Shown: positions 13,971-46,653 of the stretch, piece after piece
Numbering within the stretch: the first letter of the stretch is position 1
How the letters are laid out: every line of letters begins with the position of its first letter
Assembly (NCBI GenBank): GCA_015075375.1
Contig: JABTUM010000002.1
Span: 341,393 to 405,392, forward strand
Origin: Planctomycetota bacterium
GTDB taxonomy: Bacteria; Planctomycetota; SZUA-567; H5-PLA8
Length of the DNA stretch: 64,000 nt
Direction: 5' to 3'
The notes under the pieces: generated by a model
Told to the model about the DNA's origin: nothing
Databases searched by the model: none
Seen by the model: only the letters and a program-made list of their open reading frames with translations
Program-made: the position numbers and the translations under genes

Positions 13971-15266
13971 ATGGACACAAGTTGGACGGTAAGCGCTTGG
14001 GGCGGAGTCCGGCGCGATTTGTGCCCCGGGTTACGTGCGCCACACCCGCTTGGATACGTGGCGCAAGAGTGGCCGAAAATTCCACTTTCAAAGAGGCCTG
14101 CCCATTTAACAATCGAGTCCGTGGCGACAAAGGATCAAGTGTTCAAGGAACTGTTGCGCCAACTGCACAGACAGGTGCAGGAAGCCTTTGCGCCCGGCGA
14201 ACGATTACCCTCCACTCGCGAACTGGCGGCCGCGCACGGGGTCGCCCGCATGACCATCCAGAACGCGCTGCGCGAACTGAGCAGACAGGGGATGGTTCGT
14301 GCCGTATCCGGCGTGGGCTGGTTTCGGGCGGGGCAGGGAGCGGTGCCCGAAAGCCCGGCGAAGTTGCGGATCGGAATGCTAAGCAAATTGTCGCGGGCCG
14401 ACTGGAACTCGACTGCGCTTATTCAAGAGTTGCTCCAGGAAGGGAGGCGCCGGGGCATGACTCTGGTGGAGTGCCCCAATCCGCACAGCCGATTGACCAC
14501 CCCCGGCCGGCACCGCATTCGGCTCGCTGAAATTCCTTGGAATACTTTCGATATCGGTTTTCTTGTGGAAGCCGCCGAGACCATTGCTGCCGATGCCGAG
14601 AAGCTGCTCGCACATCGCCTGCTGGTCGTCGACCAGGATGCGACGGCGGCGGGCCTCGACAGCGTGGTCTTCGACGACTTCGAAGTCGGCGCGATTGCAG
14701 CGCGGCACCTGTACGAATGGGGACATCGCCGATTTGCGGTGCTCGAAGAGTTCAACCTTCCCGGTAATGCCTGCGATCCCAATTGGGCCGACAGGCGGTT
14801 TGGATTTGAACGAACGGTGGGACAATTGGGCGGGACGATACGGACGCCATGGCGGCTCCCGTATCCGCGCATGCAAGGCTCGACACGGCGCCTGTTCGCC
14901 GATTTCCTGGTGCCGGCCGTCGCCCAATGGGCCGCGTCGCCCCTAGAGCAAAGACCCACCGCCTTTTTTGCCACCTATGAAGCCGTCATCGCTCCCCTCA
15001 TGGAGCAACTGGCGCGGCACGGATTGCGCGTGCCCCGGGACATGTCCATCGTGACGGCGTGGTGGGGAAACGAAAAGCTGGTCGTGAACGGGATCCCCAT
15101 GGCCAGCGTGAATCTGCGGCTTGAGAACCTCGTGAAGCGAAGCTTCGATCTGGCCGAAGAACTCCATTCCGAAAGGTTCAGTCCTGCCATGCGTCAACCG
15201 CGCAGGGTCTGCGCCCCCATCCTGTTTATTCCCGGCGAATCGACCCGTCCGCCCGCTGCGCGCTAA
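13971..15266 (+). CDS. second GntR-HTH / LacI-type binding-domain hybrid transcriptional regulator (paralog of 285..1427)
   Basis: HTH segment KDQVFKELLRQLHRQVQEAFAPGERLPSTRELAAAHGVARMTIQNALRELSRQGMV followed by a LacI/PBP-like domain. The true start may be the GTG near 14120 rather than the ATG at 13971. Confidence 0.75.
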   Translation: MDTSWTVSAWGGVRRDLCPGLRAPHPLGYVAQEWPKIPLSKRPAHLTIESVATKDQVFKELLRQLHRQVQEAFAPGERLPSTRELAAAHGVARMTIQNALRELSRQGMVRAVSGVGWFRAGQGAVPESPAKLRIGMLSKLSRADWNSTALIQELLQEGRRRGMTLVECPNPHSRLTTPGRHRIRLAEIPWNTFDIGFLVEAAETIAADAEKLLAHRLLVVDQDATAAGLDSVVFDDFEVGAIAARHLYEWGHRRFAVLEEFNLPGNACDPNWADRRFGFERTVGQLGGTIRTPWRLPYPRMQGSTRRLFADFLVPAVAQWAASPLEQRPTAFFATYEAVIAPLMEQLARHGLRVPRDMSIVTAWWGNEKLVVNGIPMASVNLRLENLVKRSFDLAEELHSERFSPAMRQPRRVCAPILFIPGESTRPPAAR

Positions 15267-15322
15267 GCGGTCGCGCCGAAAGACCATGAGCGTCTCGGTA
15301 GGGTTAGTCGAGGTTCGGAAAG

Positions 15323-15793
15323 CTATGCAGTTTCATGTTCAATCCTAAAATCTTCATAGACAATATAGCGGCAAGCCCGCTCCGAAAAATATTCGCGCAT
15401 CAAGGGCTTAACTTCGAGATCCCAAGAGAGCTTACCTAGTCCGGCTCCGATTTTCGGCAACCCAATCGATTCGATCTGCTCCTTCTCAGCCCATTTTGCA
15501 AGCTTTCGAAAAGCCTTCCGGACGAGGCTCGCCGTCGCATGGTACATATCCGGTTGAGTTGCAAGATAGATAACGCCAGGGCGCTCATCCGTAGGAGGGC
15601 AAATCCAGATCGTCCCGCCTTTGAAGGAACCAGACCTCGCGAACTTCTTGAAAGAGGCCTGAACATCTGGCCAGCGCTTAGAAATCTTCAGAGCCAACCC
15701 CGTGCCTAATCCCTCTTGATTCCCTTCCGCGACCCCCTGTGCAATGTATTGCGCATTGGATTGCAGAAGATCGCCCGCTACGAACTCAATCAA
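15323..15793 (-). CDS. macro-domain protein of the TARG1/DarG (ADP-ribose-binding / ADP-ribosyl-hydrolase) type
   Basis: 156 aa. The pattern GDLLQ...AQGVAEGNQEGLGTGLALKISKRWPD...GGTIWICPPTDERPGVIYLATQP...IGLPKIGAGLGKLSWDLV...YIVYEDF aligns by eye with TARG1/DarG macrodomain landmarks (GDLF, GIA, FKKK, YIYYL, PRIGCGLDRL). Markedly lower GC than the genome. Confidence 0.75.
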   Translation of the reverse strand: MIEFVAGDLLQSNAQYIAQGVAEGNQEGLGTGLALKISKRWPDVQASFKKFARSGSFKGGTIWICPPTDERPGVIYLATQPDMYHATASLVRKAFRKLAKWAEKEQIESIGLPKIGAGLGKLSWDLEVKPLMREYFSERACRYIVYEDFRIEHETA

Positions 15794-15856
15794 ATATGAG
15801 CCTTTCTATTTCCGTCGACTGCCTGTCATCGGTGTGTGCAGGGGAGAGACATGCCT

Positions 15857-16201
15857 CTAAACTACTCGGCTACCGCCACTTTTTGCACCATAATTCTTGC
15901 CGAATACCTTTTCGGAAACAAAGCCGACCAACAACACTACGCCTACGAAGGCGACTAGATCGATGATCAAGAATACGGGCGTCCACACGGGTTGTTCAAA
16001 CTTACCGTCATATTCAATATAAAAAGGGGTAGGCCAACCCTTAGTGCGGAATGGAATGCCTAGGCGATTACGGTGCTCCGTTCCGATGACATTAAGCCCA
16101 ACCACGACGGCGCCAGCCAGCATCATCAAGATGGCGCTCGGTAGGCTGAAGCGGAGGCGATTAAGCATTGAATGCCATTGCGGGCTTACCGTTCCACGCA
16201 C
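15857..16201 (-). CDS. small hypothetical membrane protein (2 TM), upstream of and co-directional with the macro-domain gene
   Basis: 114-aa ORF with two hydrophobic helices (SAILMMLAGAVVVGLNVIG and VFLIIDLVAFVGVVLLVGFV). Low GC. No motif recognised. Confidence 0.45.
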   Translation of the reverse strand: MRGTVSPQWHSMLNRLRFSLPSAILMMLAGAVVVGLNVIGTEHRNRLGIPFRTKGWPTPFYIEYDGKFEQPVWTPVFLIIDLVAFVGVVLLVGFVSEKVFGKNYGAKSGGSRVV

Positions 16202-16279
16202 CGTCGCCTCTTATTCTTTACAACCTTCCGTCCAAGCCCCCGCCTCAAGTCTACCCTTCACCCTTCACCCTTCACCGGC

Positions 16280-17097: not shown

Positions 17098-17753
17098 GAA
17101 GGTCCGTGCGGCACGGGGCGGGGTCAGACCAAAGCCGATTGAACTGCGGATTTGGGGTGAGCCATTAATCGTGGGAAAGTAGACCTTCGTTAAGTACTAC
17201 GGAGGGTCAACTTTGGTCTCTTCCCCGCCCGCGTGTCGCTACTTCGGAACCTCCTTCTGCTTAGGTCAGATCTCATCTGCCCGGCGCCCGCGCGCCGAGC
17301 CCCATCTCTTTTGCTCAGCCTCCCGGATGCCGCCCTTCGGGACGGATGTGGAGGAGGGGTTTCCAAGGACTCCGTCCCTCAGAGCGCCATCCGGGAGAAC
17401 TCATTCTGCTTGTTCAACCATCCTTACTGTTCGGGTCCTGCCTTCCGGACTTAAGGTGCTTTCTTCCTAGTTCTTCAGCAACCCCTGCGCCAGTCTTCGG
17501 TTCTCACCTTATTCAGCGCGTCAATCTCTTCTTTTCAGTGCTTCTACTCCCTAGACAGCCGTACCAGTCGGTTTCTTCAAGCTTTTGAGTTGAACCGCAT
17601 TCTTTCCTGAACTATTTTGCTCCGAAGGTCTTACTAACTTAATCCTAAGTTTTAATCCCTTATGAACAGGTGCTTTGCGTCCGATCTAGGTCTATTCTCG
17701 GTAGTTGCACCCTAACTAAATCACATGGTGAAGACTGTGTCAATATGATTAAC

Positions 17754-17769
17754 AACCAACCGGTTGGTT
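17754..17769. promoter_or_regulatory. perfect 16-bp palindrome AACCAACCGGTTGGTT; candidate operator, possibly for the adjacent TetR-family regulator
   Basis: Seen directly in the sequence. It lies about 90 bp downstream of the tetR-family gene stop and about 10 bp upstream of a minus-strand TTGACA (17743..17738). Confidence 0.4.
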
Positions 17770-17856
17770 TTATTCCGTGTTCTATTTCGAGACAGAGTTG
17801 CGCGTGTGCAATAACTGGGAAATCTAGCGGTTTTTGATTGGCCCGGCAGACTTGCA

Positions 17857-18468
17857 CTAGGTGAGCAATAGTTTCCGAAGCGTTTCCATTGCCCCGTGGA
17901 TCGTCGATTCGTCTTCGGATTTATCCATCAGATAGACGCCGCAGATCGCGCTGGTCACGACGAAGCTTAGGTCGCGCGGGGCGATGTCTTTACGCAGGTC
18001 GCCTTGCTCCTGAGCTTGATGCAGAAGCAATTCCCAGAAGGCCAGCCAGCGGGTCCGGATCTCGTGTACCGTGCGGCCCAGTTCGTCCTGGTCGGGTGAA
18101 AGTTCGCTGCTCCAGGTCGCGAGGAGCTTGCAGTAGGACCAGTCTTTGTTGCGGTGGAGTTCCTCGATCTTGCGCAGCGTCGTCTCGATCTTCTCGCGCG
18201 CTTTCATCTCCTGTTCCAACACGGGGTAGTAGTGCTGGGTGTAGCTGTTACGGATCTCGTCCAGGATGGTGAGCGCCAAGTCTTCTTTGGTGCGCCAGTG
18301 GTGATAGAACGCGCCTTTGGTGATGCGCGCGTCTTCGAAGAGGTCATAAATGCTGGTGTTGTGGTAACCCTTCTGCGTGAAGAGCCTTTTGGCGGTCTGC
18401 AGGATCTGGTCGCGGGTCTGTTCGCCTTTGAGATAGCGGCGCGTGGAAGATCCCGAAGGACTGCTCAT
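17857..18468 (-). CDS. TetR/AcrR-family transcriptional regulator
   Basis: 203 aa. The N-terminal HTH (ILQTAKRLFTQKGYHNTSIYDLFEDARITKGAFYHHWRTKEDL) is characteristic of the TetR family. Confidence 0.85.
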   Translation of the reverse strand: MSSPSGSSTRRYLKGEQTRDQILQTAKRLFTQKGYHNTSIYDLFEDARITKGAFYHHWRTKEDLALTILDEIRNSYTQHYYPVLEQEMKAREKIETTLRKIEELHRNKDWSYCKLLATWSSELSPDQDELGRTVHEIRTRWLAFWELLLHQAQEQGDLRKDIAPRDLSFVVTSAICGVYLMDKSEDESTIHGAMETLRKLLLT

Positions 18469-42877: not shown

Positions 42878-44865
42878 CGATCATGGCCTGGCAGCCCAGC
42901 CGGACGCTGGTCGCTTCATTGCTGACCGCCGCGGCCTTGGGGCTGCCGATCGCGGCGTGGTACATTACCGGCCGGCACGACCTGATCGAGCGGACTCAGC
43001 GCCTGACGCAGGAACAGCCGCGCCGGCTCGCGCGCCAAAAGGCGGTGGTGCTGGCCGAGCGCATCGCCACGCGGCTGCAGGCTTTGATCGAGAACGAGGT
43101 CAAGCGTCCCTTTTACTATTACAATAATCTGTACCACGATCCTAAAGGGGCGAGTGAAGGGCCTTCGGTGCAGCTTTCGCCGCTGGCGCAGGGCCCCAGC
43201 GAGCCGCTGATCGAAGCGTATTTCCAGATCGATCCGCAGAACCGCGTTTCGCTGCCCACCTTGAATCCGGTCGTGCCCGAAGGCAACGTCGCCATGGATC
43301 TGCCGCGCCAGAGGGAACTCTTGAGCGTGCTGGAGCCGGCCGCGGCTTCGTGCGTGGTCGCCTTGAACGGCAATCCGGCGGGATCCCCGTGGACGAGCGC
43401 GCCTTACCAGACCGCCGAACAGAGCGTTGCCGAGCCGCAACAGACCGCGAGCCAGCAGGAGGCGCAAGGACCGGAGCAGGTCAAGCAGGTTCAGGTCGAG
43501 AGCGCGGCTCCGCAACAGCCGGCGAGTTCGACTTCGTCTGCGCCGCAGCCGTCTCAAGAGCAGCAGCAGGCGATGCCGCAGCAGAACGCCTGGAACGGCA
43601 ATCGCTACGAGCAGAAGATCGACAACGACGCATGGGTCCAAATCCTGAATTCCAATTCGACCTACATCGATATTCAGTCGCGCAAGAACAAGCGCATCGG
43701 CGGCAAAGGCGATCCAGGGGATGCGCATACGGAGCCTCAAACCGCGATGCAGGGCGGGGAAGAGGTGGTGATTTACGAGAGCGATTTCGTGTGGCGGACG
43801 GTCCCGATCGAGTCCCGCGCGCGGCTGGTCGCGCTGCGGCAAGTGACCACGCCGCTGGGCGCGCTGACGCAGGGCATCTTGCTCTCCGAGGCCGAGGTGG
43901 ACCGGCTGCTGAAGCTGCCCGATCTGGCTTCGCGGGGTTCGGCGGTCATGGCGGCGTCGCTGCAAGCGGGACTCAGCCGGCTGCCGCATCACGCACCTTT
44001 GCCGATCGACGGCGCGCACTGGCACGTCGCGGTCGATCCGGCGCCCGCACTGGCCGCCGGCGAACAATACGCCTCGGAACTGGAATCCGAGTTCCTGTGG
44101 ACTTTCTGGTCGGGCGCGCTGATCGCGGTGCTTGCGGGCTGCTGCGTGGTGCTGCTGGTCAGCCAGTCCGAGCAACTGGCTCGTCAGCGCGCGCAATTCG
44201 CGGCCAGCGCCGCGCACGAATTGCGCACGCCGCTGGCCGGCATGCGCATGTACGGCGAGATGCTGGCCGAAGGCCTGGGCGATCCGGCCAAGACGCGCGA
44301 CTACGCGCGCCGCGTCGCGGACGAAGCGGAGCGCCTGGGGCGGGTGGTCGGCAACGTGCTGAATTTTTCGCGGCTTGAGCGCGGCGTGCTGGAAGTCGCG
44401 GCCGAACCCGGCGACTTAGTAGCCGCCGTGCAGGCCAGCGTCGAACGGATGCGCCCGGCGCTCGAACACTTGGGCGCCACGGTGGAGGTGCAGTCCAACG
44501 CCGCCACGCGAATCGCGCGCTTCGATCCCGAGGCGCTGCACCAGATTCTTCAAAACCTGATCGATAACGCCGAGAAGTACAGCCGGACCTCGAGCGACCG
44601 TTCGATCGGCATCAAGATCACGCCGGATGCGCACGGCGGCTTGGAGTTGGCGGTGGCCGATCGCGGTCCGGGCATCGATAAGGCGCTGCGCAAACGGCTC
44701 TTCCAGCCCTTCTCGCGCGGCTGCGGTGCCGACGCGCCCGCCGGTCTGGGCCTGGGACTGGCGCTGACCCAAGCGCTGGTGCACGCGCAAGGCGCCGGCA
44801 TTTCCTACCGCGAAGCGCCCGGCGGCGGCGCCTGCTTCGCCGTACGGTTCCCGGCGGTGAAGTAG
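42874..44865 (+). CDS. sensor histidine kinase (HisKA + HATPase_c) with a Q/P/S-rich periplasmic region
   Basis: Its ATG overlaps the response-regulator stop (ATGA). There are two TM segments. H-box SAAHELRTPLAGM, N-box QNLIDNAEKYS, G-boxes DRGPGI and GLGLGLAL. Confidence 0.85.
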   Translation: MTIMAWQPSRTLVASLLTAAALGLPIAAWYITGRHDLIERTQRLTQEQPRRLARQKAVVLAERIATRLQALIENEVKRPFYYYNNLYHDPKGASEGPSVQLSPLAQGPSEPLIEAYFQIDPQNRVSLPTLNPVVPEGNVAMDLPRQRELLSVLEPAAASCVVALNGNPAGSPWTSAPYQTAEQSVAEPQQTASQQEAQGPEQVKQVQVESAAPQQPASSTSSAPQPSQEQQQAMPQQNAWNGNRYEQKIDNDAWVQILNSNSTYIDIQSRKNKRIGGKGDPGDAHTEPQTAMQGGEEVVIYESDFVWRTVPIESRARLVALRQVTTPLGALTQGILLSEAEVDRLLKLPDLASRGSAVMAASLQAGLSRLPHHAPLPIDGAHWHVAVDPAPALAAGEQYASELESEFLWTFWSGALIAVLAGCCVVLLVSQSEQLARQRAQFAASAAHELRTPLAGMRMYGEMLAEGLGDPAKTRDYARRVADEAERLGRVVGNVLNFSRLERGVLEVAAEPGDLVAAVQASVERMRPALEHLGATVEVQSNAATRIARFDPEALHQILQNLIDNAEKYSRTSSDRSIGIKITPDAHGGLELAVADRGPGIDKALRKRLFQPFSRGCGADAPAGLGLGLALTQALVHAQGAGISYREAPGGGACFAVRFPAVK

Positions 44866-44904
44866 GAGCTCTGTTTCTCGTTGTAACACATGCAATGACC
44901 CGTA

Positions 44905-44932
44905 TTGACATTCATTTGAATGGATATACATT
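44905..44932 (+). promoter_or_regulatory. putative sigma70-like promoter (TTGACA ... TATACA) overlapping an inverted repeat cattca-tt-tgaatg; likely autoregulatory operator of the toxin-antitoxin cassette
   Basis: TTGACA is at 44905-44910. The palindrome is at 44908-44921 and a -10-like TATACA sits about 15 bp downstream. It is immediately upstream of the antitoxin start. Confidence 0.45.
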
Positions 44933-44957
44933 GGATCCACGGATGAGGATATTCGCC

Positions 44958-45185
44958 ATGGTTAAGACACTTACCAAGCACGGCAACAGTTACGCCTTGA
45001 TCATCGATCGCGCCATTTTGGATCTGCTCAAGATCACGTCCGAGACGCCGTTGGAGATTTCCACGGACGGGCAGTGTTTGACGATCGCGCCCGTTCGAGA
45101 CGACGCGCACCGCGCCAAGTTCAAGAAGGCCATGGGCGACGTGAATCGAAAGTACGCCCGGGCGCTCAAGAAGCTGGCCGAGTGA
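44958..45185 (+). CDS. AbrB/MazE (SpoVT-AbrB)-type antitoxin
   Basis: 75 aa. MVKTLTKHGNSYALIIDRAILDLLKI is the swapped-hairpin AbrB/MazE fold signature. Low GC. It lies directly upstream of a Doc/Fic toxin gene. Confidence 0.7.
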   Translation: MVKTLTKHGNSYALIIDRAILDLLKITSETPLEISTDGQCLTIAPVRDDAHRAKFKKAMGDVNRKYARALKKLAE

Positions 45186-45188
45186 GCC

Positions 45189-45584
45189 ATGCCTCCCGTT
45201 TTTCTCAAGCTCGAAGAGGTCCTGGAAATCCATCAGGATCAGACCGAACGGTACGGCGGAGACGCCGGTATCCGTGATTTGGGCTTGTTGCAATCGGCGG
45301 TAGCCATGCCGCAGGCTACTTTCGGTGGGCAGTTTTTGCACGAAGACCTGTACGCCATGGCTTCCGCATACCTGTATCACATCGTCCAGAATCATCCATT
45401 CTTGGATGGTAATAAGCGAACGGGAACGGTTGCAGCGCTGGTTTTTTTGGAAATGAACGACGTGCCCGTGGATATTCCGGAGCCTGAGTTAGTGGATTTC
45501 GTGCTCTTGGTCGCCACTGGAAATACGGACAAGCCGCAAATCGCCCGGTTCTTACGGGAACACGCGGCCCCGTCTATCTCATAG
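45189..45584 (+). CDS. doc: Doc (death-on-curing) / Fic-family toxin
   Basis: 131 aa. The Fic motif is HPFLDGNKRTG (HxFx[D/N]GNKR), and the sequence ERYGGDAGIRDLGLLQSAVAMPQATFGGQFLHEDLY fits Doc. It starts 3 nt after the antitoxin stop. Confidence 0.8.
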   Translation: MPPVFLKLEEVLEIHQDQTERYGGDAGIRDLGLLQSAVAMPQATFGGQFLHEDLYAMASAYLYHIVQNHPFLDGNKRTGTVAALVFLEMNDVPVDIPEPELVDFVLLVATGNTDKPQIARFLREHAAPSIS

Positions 45585-45592
45585 AAGTACGC

Positions 45593-45667
45593 ATGGCTCC
45601 CCGGGAAGGATTCGAACCTTCAACCCTGCGGTTAACAGCCGCATGCTCTACCATTGAGCTACCGGGG
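45593..45667 (-). tRNA. tRNA-Asn (anticodon GTT), CCA encoded
   Basis: The reverse complement folds as a cloverleaf. The acceptor is TCCCCGG/CCGGGGA. The D arm is GCTC-AATGGTA-GAGC. The anticodon stem is TGCGG/CCGCA with loop CTGTTAA. The T arm is GAAGG-TTCGAAT-CCTTC, with discriminator G and CCA. Confidence 0.85.
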
Positions 45668-45816
45668 AACCGGCACGGACGGCCAGGACGGCCGCCGCTC
45701 ATGGCGTGAAGCGTCCTATTTAGGACATGAGCCGACGATGTCAAGCGCAAGGGAACGAGTTCGCGCCCACTCAGGGTGCGAACTCGTCTTGAGGTTAGCG
45801 TTTTCGAAGTCGGCGC

Positions 45817-46653
45817 TTACTTGGCCGGAGCTTGGGCCTGCTTGGCCTTTTCCTGGAACTGCTTGGCGCGCTCCTGGCGCGGCGCGGCTTTGACTTCGTT
45901 CCAGGGAAAGCGACGCGGCGTCTCGCGCTTCTTGGCATCGAGCCCGAAGCCCAGGATCAGCGCGCGGCGCGGCTGGTTCGTGCGGTTGGGGCCGGCGTAA
46001 TGCAGCGTGCCGTTGAGGTGGAACGTGGCGCCGCCGGCGGGAATCGGGCAGGCCACCGCGTTACGCGTATGCCGTTCCGCGTCGACCAACTCCAGCCCGT
46101 GAATGCGCGTGTCCCCGCCGATGCAGCGGTGGGGCAGAACCTCCAGCTTGTGGCTGCCCGGCACGAACCAGAGGCACCCGTTCTCCACGGTCGCGTCCTG
46201 CAAGGGAATCCAGACGCTCAGCGAGCGGTAGACCAGGTCCGGACCCCAGTACGCTTCGTCCTGGTGCCAAGGCGTGGGCACTCCGTGCCCGGCGGGCTTC
46301 AGGATGGCGTGGCTGCCGCGATCCATGCAGCCTTCGCCCAATAGCTGTTGCGCCACCGCGCGCGCATTCACCCGCGCCAGCATGTCGGCCAGTTCCGGCG
46401 CGTACTTCATCGGGTTCAGAATCTGCGGGAGTCCTTCCTGCTTGCCGTCCTCGTCGCTTCCGCCCAGATCGAACTGATTGCCTTCCTCGCGCCCGGCCTT
46501 CTGCGCGAAGATGCGGTCGTAGGTCGATTGGAGCCGTTCGACGTCCGCCCGCGTCGTGATCGCATCCAGCGCCAGGAATCCGTTGGTGTGGAAGAAGTCG
46601 ATCTGCGCCTGAGTGACCGTCACGGTGGGCTTGACCTCGAGCACGGCGTTCAT
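45817..46653 (-). CDS. phytanoyl-CoA dioxygenase (PhyH)-family Fe(II)/2-oxoglutarate oxygenase
   Basis: Start at MNAVLEV. Contains the HxD...H facial triad context (PWHQDEAYWG ... TLHYAGPN) typical of the PhyH family. Confidence 0.75.
   Translation of the reverse strand: MNAVLEVKPTVTVTQAQIDFFHTNGFLALDAITTRADVERLQSTYDRIFAQKAGREEGNQFDLGGSDEDGKQEGLPQILNPMKYAPELADMLARVNARAVAQQLLGEGCMDRGSHAILKPAGHGVPTPWHQDEAYWGPDLVYRSLSVWIPLQDATVENGCLWFVPGSHKLEVLPHRCIGGDTRIHGLELVDAERHTRNAVACPIPAGGATFHLNGTLHYAGPNRTNQPRRALILGFGLDAKKRETPRRFPWNEVKAAPRQERAKQFQEKAKQAQAPAK

Follow-up and report, generated by a model that had tools for sequence, protein, structure and literature searches.

Composite toxin-antitoxin (TA) operons joining a MazE-like antitoxin to a Doc-like toxin were described as the mazE-doc family 'TasAB' by Fico & Mahillon in 2006 (PMC1626090). 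In the TasA-TasB pair of Bacillus thuringiensis plasmid pGI1, a MazE-like antitoxin with a GNS motif is encoded directly upstream of the Doc-like toxin, and members of the family are chromosomal and widespread, with one planctomycete included in the original survey (PMC1626090). TasB is characterised by the pattern H(x)5NKR(x)8F(x)3N, and TasA by GNS in its N-terminal part and by conservation of its C-terminus; the same survey counted 55 TasA(MazE-like)-Doc loci and 5 Phd-Doc loci (PMC1626090). In Phd-Doc of bacteriophage P1 (PDB 3k33, 3dd7, 3kh2) the antitoxin likewise comes first, and P1 Doc phosphorylates EF-Tu; Doc members with the motif HxFx(D/N)(A/G)NKR are all expected to act as kinases (reviewed in PMC4177925). 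Also relevant are E. coli MazE (1ub4, 1mvf, 2mrn/2mru), the acidic-tailed, DNA-binding autorepressor whose partner is the MazF RNase, and PDB 9vzc, in which a 'Death-on-curing family protein' is found with an 'Addiction module antidote'.

The locus considered here lies in a window of 64,000 nt (the whole stretch of DNA analysed) from an uncultured planctomycete, and is like TasA-TasB in that a MazE-like small ORF lies directly upstream of a Doc homologue on the same strand, the likeness being one of motifs and gene order as described in PMC1626090. The toxin fits the TasB motif (H-PFLDG-NKR-TGTVAALV-F-LEM-N), and the antitoxin carries the GNS motif and, like TasA, has a conserved C-terminal region. 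The locus differs from TasA-TasB in that its genes are 3 nt apart rather than overlapping, and in being chromosomal, in an uncultured planctomycete host. With P1 Phd-Doc it shares a toxin homologous over nearly its full length, the same catalytic motif and, presumably, EF-Tu phosphorylation (PMC4177925), but its antitoxin is unrelated to Phd and has an AbrB/MazE-type DNA-binding domain instead. The N-terminal 45–50 residues of the antitoxin align with E. coli MazE (RWGNSPAVRIP in MazE, KHGNSYALIID here; profile E 0.07–0.09, Foldseek probability 0.92), and the role of DNA-binding autorepressor may be common to the two; however, the partner in the cassette is Doc and not MazF, and the C-terminal, putatively toxin-binding part is predicted to form one long helix that does not resemble the acidic tail of MazE. 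Both partners in 9vzc match the cassette, the toxin at E 1e-6 (residues 20–119) and the antitoxin through its profile, which aligns from end to end (3–73 to 6–76), although distantly (E 0.33); the antidote and the cassette antitoxin have in common the xKxGNS start and, towards the C-terminus, a long helical region. We read the locus as a routine chromosomal type II TA operon of the composite MazE(AbrB)-Doc (TasAB) type, and put the probability of this reading at roughly 0.88.

The two genes and their products

The cassette comprises 728 bp with two plus-strand ORFs, the antitoxin gene first and then the toxin gene, arranged as follows:

44945 to 44949, plus strand: Shine-Dalgarno-like GAGGA, read from the sequence, 8 nt ahead of the antitoxin ATG
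44958 to 45185, plus strand: antitoxin gene, 75 aa, product beginning MVKTLTKHGNSYALIID
45189 to 45584, plus strand: toxin gene, 131 aa, with HPFLDGNKRTG as residues 69–79
45594 to 45668, minus strand: tRNA-Asn(GTT), called by ARAGORN and Rfam (RF00005, 73.4 bits), CCA encoded, convergent with the toxin gene

Both ORFs are where the first-pass annotation had placed them, the stop of the antitoxin gene lying 3 nt (gcc) before the ATG of the toxin gene, and the two-component genes that it had reported as neighbours were found as a flanking response regulator and HisKA/HATPase_c histidine kinase. The tRNA-Asn 3′ end does lie just past the toxin stop, although the distance to the mature end is 9 nt and not the 8 originally given; an Rfam scan of 44000 to 46500 found no structured RNA beyond the tRNA. 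A longer antitoxin ORF of 96 aa (start 44895) was rejected, because homologues of the antitoxin are 75 aa long with the same start Met as the shorter form, the promoter lies downstream of the 44895 ATG, and GAGGA precedes 44958. At the corresponding position in homologous loci, GGAGG/GAGGA was enriched. Both proteins are already correctly named in NCBI/GenBank annotation, the identical antitoxin protein as 'AbrB/MazE/SpoVT family DNA-binding domain-containing protein' and the identical toxin protein as 'type II toxin-antitoxin system death-on-curing family toxin'.

As judged by profile and sequence comparison, the toxin, a small single-domain protein, is a clear member of the Doc family. It matched Pfam Fic PF02661 at 2.2e-19 (70.5 bits, cut-off 24), TIGR01550 DOC_P1 at 1e-17 (64.5 bits, cut-off 38.65), the P1 Doc structure 3k33_A at E 1.2e-13 (residues 8–124 on 6–120 of 126) and PHROG 577 'Doc-like toxin' at 1.1e-34; with both curated cut-offs exceeded, these matches uphold the original call of a Doc/Fic toxin in a type II TA cassette. 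The kinase-type motif is intact (H69-P-F-L-D73-G-N75-K76-R77) and fits the Doc consensus HxFx(D/N)(A/G)NKR, in which Lys replaces Gly at position 8. This active-site motif was invariant across 31 homologues, and all 31 of the columns invariant in the alignment of those homologues are retained in the toxin. By analogy with P1 Doc, the toxin would be a kinase with EF-Tu as its target.

The antitoxin appears to be built from an N-terminal half of AbrB/MazE/SpoVT DNA-binding type (residues ~1–46) and a C-terminal helix (~49–74). Its assignment to the AbrB/MazE-type fold class, proposed at the outset as a swapped-hairpin antitoxin, is supported by family Pfam matches, the predicted fold and weak MazE structure matches. 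The window antitoxin itself had no Pfam match at E≤1, but 38/40 of its homologues (67–76% identical) matched the SpoVT_AbrB profile PF04014 (best E 1.1e-6), and a profile of the antitoxin family matched MazE and AbrB-type chains in the PDB at E 0.035–0.09. TIGR02609 doc_partner aligned with the antitoxin end to end (residues 4–74 against profile 2–73 of 74; E 3e-6), but the score of 27.5 bits did not reach the curated cut-off of 55.9, and the antitoxin is therefore taken to represent a sister subfamily of TIGR02609. An AlphaFold2 model (mean pLDDT 77; E2-8, E11-16, H18-23, E32-36, E39-43, H49-74) reproduced the beta-beta-alpha-beta-beta topology of the AbrB/MazE/SpoVT half-barrel, and its top Foldseek matches were E. 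coli MazE 2mrn, 2mru and 1mvf (probability 0.84–0.92), with C56/C68, VapB and AbrB also among the matches. These matches were weak (E at least 0.13, TM 0.35–0.5), as is expected where a monomer model replaces an obligate intertwined dimer.

Within the antitoxin, G9-N10-S11 is invariant in homologues, and the conserved residues of the C-terminal part are N63, R68, A69, L70, L73, A74 and E75. No PhdYeFM Pfam match was found in the protein, alignment with Phd by hhalign returned a probability of 1.2%, and a search of the PDB with the C-terminal 30-mer found nothing. The possibility that the C-terminal helix is a Phd-like Doc-binding C-terminus was rejected, since neither the hhalign comparison nor the PDB search with the 30-mer showed similarity.

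The pairing of the two genes is general among relatives. An antitoxin relative (47–75% identical) was encoded directly upstream of a toxin relative (57–70% identical) in 77/80 metagenomic loci, and the remaining three loci end within 150 nt of a contig end, such that all of the testable loci (77/77) were paired; in these, 5–36 nt separated the tblastn-aligned antitoxin and toxin segments. An AbrB-fold antitoxin with Doc had been thought a less common combination than Phd with Doc, a view contradicted both by this count and by the published survey described above.

Promoter, candidate operator and proposed action

Three elements were recognised ahead of the antitoxin gene:

44905 to 44932, plus strand: sigma-70-like TA operon promoter, with -35 TTGACA at 44905 to 44910, a 16-nt spacer and -10 TACATT at 44927 to 44932
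44923 to 44945, plus strand: candidate operator, tandem 11-nt repeats GATATACATTG / GATCCACGGATG (TAC-N8-CAC) spanning the -10 box and the probable start of transcription
44909 to 44922, no strand assigned: palindrome CATTCA-tt-TGAATG in the -35/-10 spacer, part of an imperfect inverted repeat with 13-nt arms at 44902 to 44929

The promoter gave 10/12 matches in a consensus scan. Its layout, TTGAC-N16/17-TAnTACAwT, was present upstream of the antitoxin gene in 26/46 non-redundant homologous loci, compared with 0.05 expected from shuffles, and the window promoter aligns in register with the family architecture TTGAC-N16/17-GGTAtTACAtTG-tAtaTAC; the promoter placed before the cassette by the first-pass annotation is judged real from this conservation across the family. 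The GGTAtTACAtTG-tAtaTAC portion is the family repeat consensus, and 5-mers such as TATAC were ~20-fold enriched within 60 nt upstream of the antitoxin genes of homologous loci. The second operator repeat of the window (GATCCAC) is degenerate. By analogy with MazE, the antitoxin would be expected to bind the tandem repeat.

An autoregulatory operator had originally been seen in the palindrome that overlaps the promoter. The palindrome is present, but when the 92-nt intergenic region was shuffled, 12% of the shuffles contained an equal or better perfect palindrome (P ~0.12), and the element alone is therefore not beyond chance. Moreover, the -35/-10 spacer that holds it is variable in homologous loci, the conserved element being instead the tandem repeat over the -10 box; a role for the palindrome as operator is thus not supported by comparison of the family sequences.

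On the model of P1 Doc and MazE, the operon would be transcribed from the single promoter at 44905 to 44932 as a bicistronic mRNA, in which the two genes, at 3 nt apart, are probably translationally coupled. The antitoxin would dimerise via its N-terminal swapped-hairpin AbrB/MazE domain and probably bind the tandem TAC-N8-YAC repeats over the -10 box, repressing its own operon; the toxin is probably bound and held inactive by the C-terminal helix of the antitoxin. On degradation of a presumed labile antitoxin, free Doc would use ATP bound in the inverted, Doc-typical orientation (Lys at Fic motif position 8) and phosphorylate EF-Tu, halting translation. The lability of the antitoxin, its binding to the operator and the neutralising part played by its C-terminal helix are all extrapolated here from the P1 Doc and MazE systems.

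Phage defence is an established role of many TA systems on chromosomes, and the pair might serve mainly in abortive infection or other anti-phage defence, instead of in stress or addiction. We consider this unlikely: PADLOC returned partial Fic-domain matches of the toxin to candidate defence proteins (PDC-S23, 7e-13), but these cover the Fic core only, in proteins of ~320 aa with a different architecture, and the antitoxin had no PADLOC match. Nor do other defence genes adjoin the cassette, the nearest candidate, a DarG-like macrodomain ORF, being 29 kb off.

Position beside tRNA-Asn and base composition

The first-pass annotation further suggested that the cassette is a minimal mobile TA islet, with the adjoining tRNA end as an integration hotspot. 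The cassette would then be a 728-bp mobile islet, or the last remnant of an island, inserted by site-specific integration at the tRNA-Asn 3′ end, and the tRNA end lies only the 9 nt given above from the toxin stop; Doc homologues are, moreover, common on plasmids (1850 records) and present in phages (72 records). We nevertheless regard this origin as improbable.

Base composition is the part of the proposal that fared best. GC content is 57.5% in the antitoxin gene, 54.0% in the toxin gene and 53.7% in the 728-bp cassette, compared with 67.1% in the histidine kinase gene and 64.6% in the window, which agrees with the earlier statement that both genes lie below the neighbouring two-component genes. 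The cassette value corresponds to z = -2.6, and only 2.6% of same-size segments reach down to it, and the gap of ~11 points compares with a usual deficit of 2.5 points relative to flanks in the family. At third codon positions, however, a deviation was seen in the toxin only (GC3 0.64, against 0.79–0.86 in neighbouring genes), and the antitoxin is host-like (0.82), which counts against the islet. Low GC, mainly toxin GC3, is the sole point that hints at foreign origin or recent acquisition, and the difference between toxin and antitoxin GC3 is left unexplained by a simple 'old resident' picture.

Signatures of integration were looked for in two ways. Probes of 15–45 nt from the tRNA 3′ end found no direct repeat in the whole window with a match better than shuffles; the best ungapped matches in 43994 to 45593 scored 10, 13 and 17 for 15-, 20- and 30-nt probes, values that 100%, 65% and 55% of the shuffles equalled or surpassed, so that the degenerate repeat anticipated there did not emerge beyond chance. 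No integrase, recombinase or transposase Pfam domain was present among called genes within 10 kb, and the element flanked by tRNA-Asn would hold the two TA genes only.

Conservation within the species and across the family points the same way. The cassette was present at this site in all ten contigs of the species, which come from different samples, and was 99.6–100% identical among them, so that no empty site was seen; however, because these contigs are near-identical across both cassette and flanks (flanks ≥99.4% identical), they are uninformative on gain or loss. In none of the 79 family loci that extend 100 nt or more downstream does a tRNA lie beside the toxin, and the single tRNA found in any family-locus flank is 1.8 kb from the cassette.

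Synteny with relatives stops exactly at the cassette, and four relatives that keep part of the gene block (L091, L092, L093 and L179, three of them with PhyH) are without it, which speaks for an insertion. These relatives are distant, with 40–60% identity in the neighbouring kinase. When homologues of the 1287-aa Ser/Thr kinase were used as anchors, the order LpxB-GFO/IDH-kinase-PhyH was kept only in L092, L093 and L179, in all of which synteny is lost immediately past PhyH; seven further loci with Ser/Thr kinase homologues (L175–L178 and L180–L182) showed no synteny with the locus. Relatives without the cassette are also missing the left-hand block in its entirety, and one has its tRNA-Asn in the opposite orientation, for which reasons they offer no true empty site. 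A search of the genome collection with the PhyH neighbour gave best matches of 52–65% identity from many phyla (Armatimonadota, Chloroflexota and others), with no tRNA-Asn in the 60 loci scanned of 80 returned; these loci were rejected for empty-site comparison because they are not syntenic.

The closeness of the cassette to the tRNA-Asn 3′ end (9 nt) is most plausibly a matter of incidental close packing or, at most, the trace of an old insertion that is now unrecognisable. That the cassette is the eroded end of an element once integrated at tRNA-Asn, or takes part in tRNA-linked reciprocal antisense transcription, seems very improbable. Coupling of the cassette and tRNA-Asn by convergent transcription, in which TA read-through would give RNA antisense to the tRNA and tRNA read-through RNA antisense to doc, with extra control of the toxin, is very unlikely: the gap is short and neither gene has a site resembling an intrinsic terminator in a consensus scan, but that scan is crude and was made with other bacteria than planctomycetes in mind, trailers are as a rule removed in tRNA 3′ processing, none of 79 family members shares the arrangement, and no conserved element supports it.

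Significance for the MazE-Doc family

As a routine chromosomal operon, the locus adds one more MazE-Doc pair to a family of thousands of members. What the first-pass annotation had observed (genes, spacing, promoter site, tRNA and composition) was confirmed as a whole, and its interpretation stood as regards TA type, Doc toxin, AbrB/MazE fold and promoter, but not as regards rarity of the pairing, a palindromic operator or a mobile islet. The useful results are negative: AbrB-Doc is the common partner arrangement and not a rare one, and adjacency to tRNA-Asn is here without a detectable integration signature.

The conserved promoter and tandem-repeat architecture offers, in addition, a small, testable lead on MazE-type autoregulation of Doc operons. 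A tandem 11-nt repeat operator over the -10 box, shared across a large environmental MazE-Doc subfamily, may be a feature not previously described; if so, it would predict a common mode of autoregulation in these operons, unlike the palindromic operators of Phd-Doc.

The antitoxin and toxin genes

A bicistronic MazE–Doc toxin–antitoxin operon working by the mechanism proposed below is the best explanation (probability about 0.88) of the cassette, a 728-bp region (44866..45593, + strand). The analysis shows its gene structure, the families of both proteins, the strict pairing of the genes and the conservation of the architecture upstream. The window holds a single copy of the cassette, laid out as follows.

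42883..44865, + strand: HisKA/HATPase_c histidine kinase gene, left neighbour; the cassette region starts after its stop
44905..44932, + strand: promoter TTGACA-16-TACATT, from a consensus scan
44923..44945: tandem 11-nt repeat over the −10 box and likely transcription start, a conserved element of the family
44958..45185, + strand: antitoxin ORF, 75 aa, MVKTLTKHGNSYALIID...
45189..45584, + strand: toxin ORF, 131 aa
45594..45668, − strand: tRNA-Asn(GTT), by ARAGORN (Rfam 73.4 bits; CCA end encoded)

As the first-pass annotation had stated, 3 nt separate the antitoxin stop from the toxin ATG; the toxin gene and tRNA-Asn are convergent, with 9 nt by ARAGORN, rather than the 8 bp first given, between the toxin TAG and the mature tRNA 3′ end. 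A 96-aa antitoxin reading from 44895 was rejected: homologues are all 75 aa with the same start Met, a GAGGA 8 nt ahead of 44958 favours the shorter ORF, and the promoter lies downstream of the longer reading's start.

The 131-aa protein is identified as a Doc toxin by profile and structure searches, all of which concur, and the original Doc/Fic assignment is upheld. It matched Pfam Fic/DOC (2.2e-19), NCBIfam TIGR01550 ‘death-on-curing family toxin’ (64.5 bits, cut-off 38.65) and PHROG 577 ‘Doc-like toxin’ (1.1e-34), while residues 8–124 matched P1 Doc crystal structures (1.2e-13). The active site, H69-P-F-L-D-G-N-K76-R77, agrees with the Doc consensus HxFx(D/N)(A/G)NKR; in P1 Doc, Lys at position 8 of the motif makes the protein an EF-Tu kinase, not an AMP-transferase (PMC4177925). 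There is no sign of toxin decay, since all 31 invariant columns of a 31-homologue alignment are retained. An identical GenBank protein is named ‘type II toxin-antitoxin system death-on-curing family toxin [Planctomycetes bacterium]’.

Taken by itself, the antitoxin fell below every curated threshold and had no relevant Pfam match: it aligned end to end with TIGR02609 ‘doc_partner’ (E 3e-6, 27.5 bits, cut-off 55.9), and the best hit of a single-sequence PDB search was an AbrB/MazE/SpoVT protein at just E 0.76. It is at family level, from homologue profiles and a predicted structure, that the AbrB/MazE-type assignment proposed at the outset is clear. The family comprises 1246 cluster representatives at E≤1e-3, most exactly 75 aa; Pfam PF04014 MazE_antitoxin was matched by 38/40 homologues of 67–76% identity (best E 1.1e-6), and the family profile matched 7d2n (AbrB/MazE/SpoVT), three E. 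coli MazE entries and 9vzc_B ‘Addiction module antidote’. The structure that AlphaFold2 predicted from the alignment (mean pLDDT 77) has a beta-beta-alpha-beta-beta topology followed by a 26-residue helix. Foldseek ranked E. coli MazE first (probability 0.92), with C56/C68, VapB and AbrB lower; its weak E-values (≥0.13) are expected because a monomer model replaces an intertwined dimer. An identical GenBank protein is called ‘AbrB/MazE/SpoVT family DNA-binding domain-containing protein’. Profile comparison indicates that the antitoxin is not Phd-like (hhalign probability 1.2%), and its C-terminal 30 residues had no match in the PDB.

Pairing, promoter and proposed mechanism

Among 80 metagenomic loci encoding a toxin of 57–70% identity, 77 carried an antitoxin of 47–75% identity directly upstream, with 5–36 nt between the tblastn-aligned segments; the other three lack room for an upstream gene because the toxin starts <150 nt from the contig end. 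A survey of this ‘composite mazE-doc’ family, TasA/TasB, recorded a TasA/MazE-like partner at 55 loci (one planctomycete) and a Phd-like partner at 5, and noted an antitoxin motif, GNS, and a toxin motif, H(x)5NKR(x)8F(x)3N (Fico & Mahillon 2006, PMC1626090). Both motifs are found in the window pair, and both proteins match 9vzc, a solved structure in which a Doc-family protein is complexed to an ‘addiction module antidote’. The survey counts, the 77/80 pairing and the 9vzc complex reverse the earlier claim that AbrB–Doc is a less common combination than Phd–Doc.

Comparison across homologous loci backs the predicted promoter much more strongly than the consensus scan does. Over the 60 nt that precede homologous antitoxin genes, TATAC, GTATA and TACAA were among 5-mers enriched 13- to 22-fold, and TTG[AC]C followed 20–30 nt on by YAC-N8-YAC occurred at 26/46 non-redundant loci, against 0.05 expected from shuffles. 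The family consensus anchored on that pattern reads TTGAC-N16/17-GGTAtTACAtTG-tAtaTAC, with which the window sequence TTGACATTCATTTGAATGGATATACATTGGATCCAC is in register; we infer that a MazE-type repressor has its best candidate operator in the tandem repeat. Autoregulation had first been ascribed to a palindrome overlapping the promoter (44909..44922). The promoter is conserved, but the palindrome sits in the spacer, which is freely variable among homologues, and a perfect palindrome of equal size arises in 12% of shuffles. It may contribute locally, since it extends to an imperfect repeat with 13-nt arms ending in GTAT/ATAC.

Enzymatic activity, target, mode of neutralisation, operator binding and antitoxin lability are modelled on P1 Doc, MazE and 9vzc. 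The two genes most likely form one bicistronic operon, probably translationally coupled. By this analogy, the antitoxin dimer would repress transcription by binding the tandem repeats across the −10 box, and its C-terminal helix would neutralise Doc; were the antitoxin lost, Doc would phosphorylate EF-Tu, arresting translation.

Composition and the tRNA-Asn junction

That the cassette is a mobile islet delivered by tRNA-directed integration, as initially suggested, is unlikely. GC content is 53.7%, compared with 64.6% for the window (z = −2.6), where the family's usual deficit against its flanks is only 2.5 points, and toxin GC3 is 0.64 as against 0.79–0.86 for neighbours; antitoxin GC3, however, is host-like, and in the intergenic part it is the promoter itself that is low in GC. 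The cassette is absent from relatives sharing the LpxB-GFO/IDH-kinase-PhyH block, but their distance (kinase identity 40–60%) is too great for an empty-site comparison, and 10/10 same-species contigs from different samples carry it at 99.6–100% identity. Plasmids often carry Doc genes and some phages have them, yet no integrase was found among called genes within 10 kb, no direct repeat of the tRNA 3′ end, sought as a trace of insertion, occurs anywhere in the window, and a tRNA adjoined the toxin at 0/79 family loci with downstream sequence. Low GC is what stands of the proposal.

Within the operon, the GC3 gap of 0.18 (toxin 0.64, antitoxin 0.82) is unusual, since the mean difference at homologous loci is only 0.03 (toxin lower in 51/77); partial toxin-gene replacement or selection for poor codons is possible. 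A second low-GC patch at 15200–16250 (0.50–0.54, window mean 0.646) holds two − strand ORFs.

15323..15793 and 15857..16201, both − strand: ORFs of the patch

One, a 155-aa Macro-domain ORF (PF01661, 4.3e-6), aligns with the DarG N-terminal macrodomain (NF048014, 6.3e-16, positions 1–147 of 338, far under cut-off) and follows, on the same strand, a 113-aa ORF that matched no family; the patch may represent a DarTG-like module, either truncated or variant. No stretch of lower GC was noticed in the window than 17450–17900 (44% GC, no ORF ≥90 aa), which sits immediately upstream of the gene for a TetR-family regulator (17857..18468, − strand).

The locus is a synteny breakpoint, and nothing links the cassette to tRNA-directed integration. 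Synteny with all these relatives stops exactly here: two (L092, L179) have a class-V aminotransferase after PhyH, and L093 (GCA_023150555.1, 15084–15948; window counterpart 45594–46653) has tRNA-Asn near PhyH in the opposite orientation, with a 247-aa ORF lacking a Pfam match between the tRNA 3′ end and PhyH. Because the right-hand block is conserved while everything past PhyH differs, this is a recurrent rearrangement breakpoint. L091 (GCA_027493525.1, 10001–13842), the closest of the relatives found, has its orthologue of the 1287-aa Ser/Thr kinase (60% identity) called as a pair of neighbouring genes (845 + 435 aa, 4-nt overlap), which suggests a frameshift, gene split or assembly error. 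A likely tRNA-Asn promoter lies on the − strand ~50 nt upstream of the tRNA 5′ end (45717–45744: TTGACA 45744..45739, 16-nt spacer, TAAATA 45722..45717), missed by the consensus scan owing to the final A of its −10 hexamer; L093 has TTGACA at ~16001..16010, similarly far upstream of its tRNA-Asn.

Place in the MazE–Doc family

Three further readings are, even pooled, very improbable: that the cassette is what remains of an integration at tRNA-Asn, that antisense transcription couples it to the tRNA, or that the family shares an operator design not described before. The toxin is covered by curated NCBIfam and Pfam models, its partner has the related but stricter TIGR02609, and the GenBank annotation of both proteins is already correct. 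The cassette is an uncharacterised yet wholly typical member of the family described in 2006.
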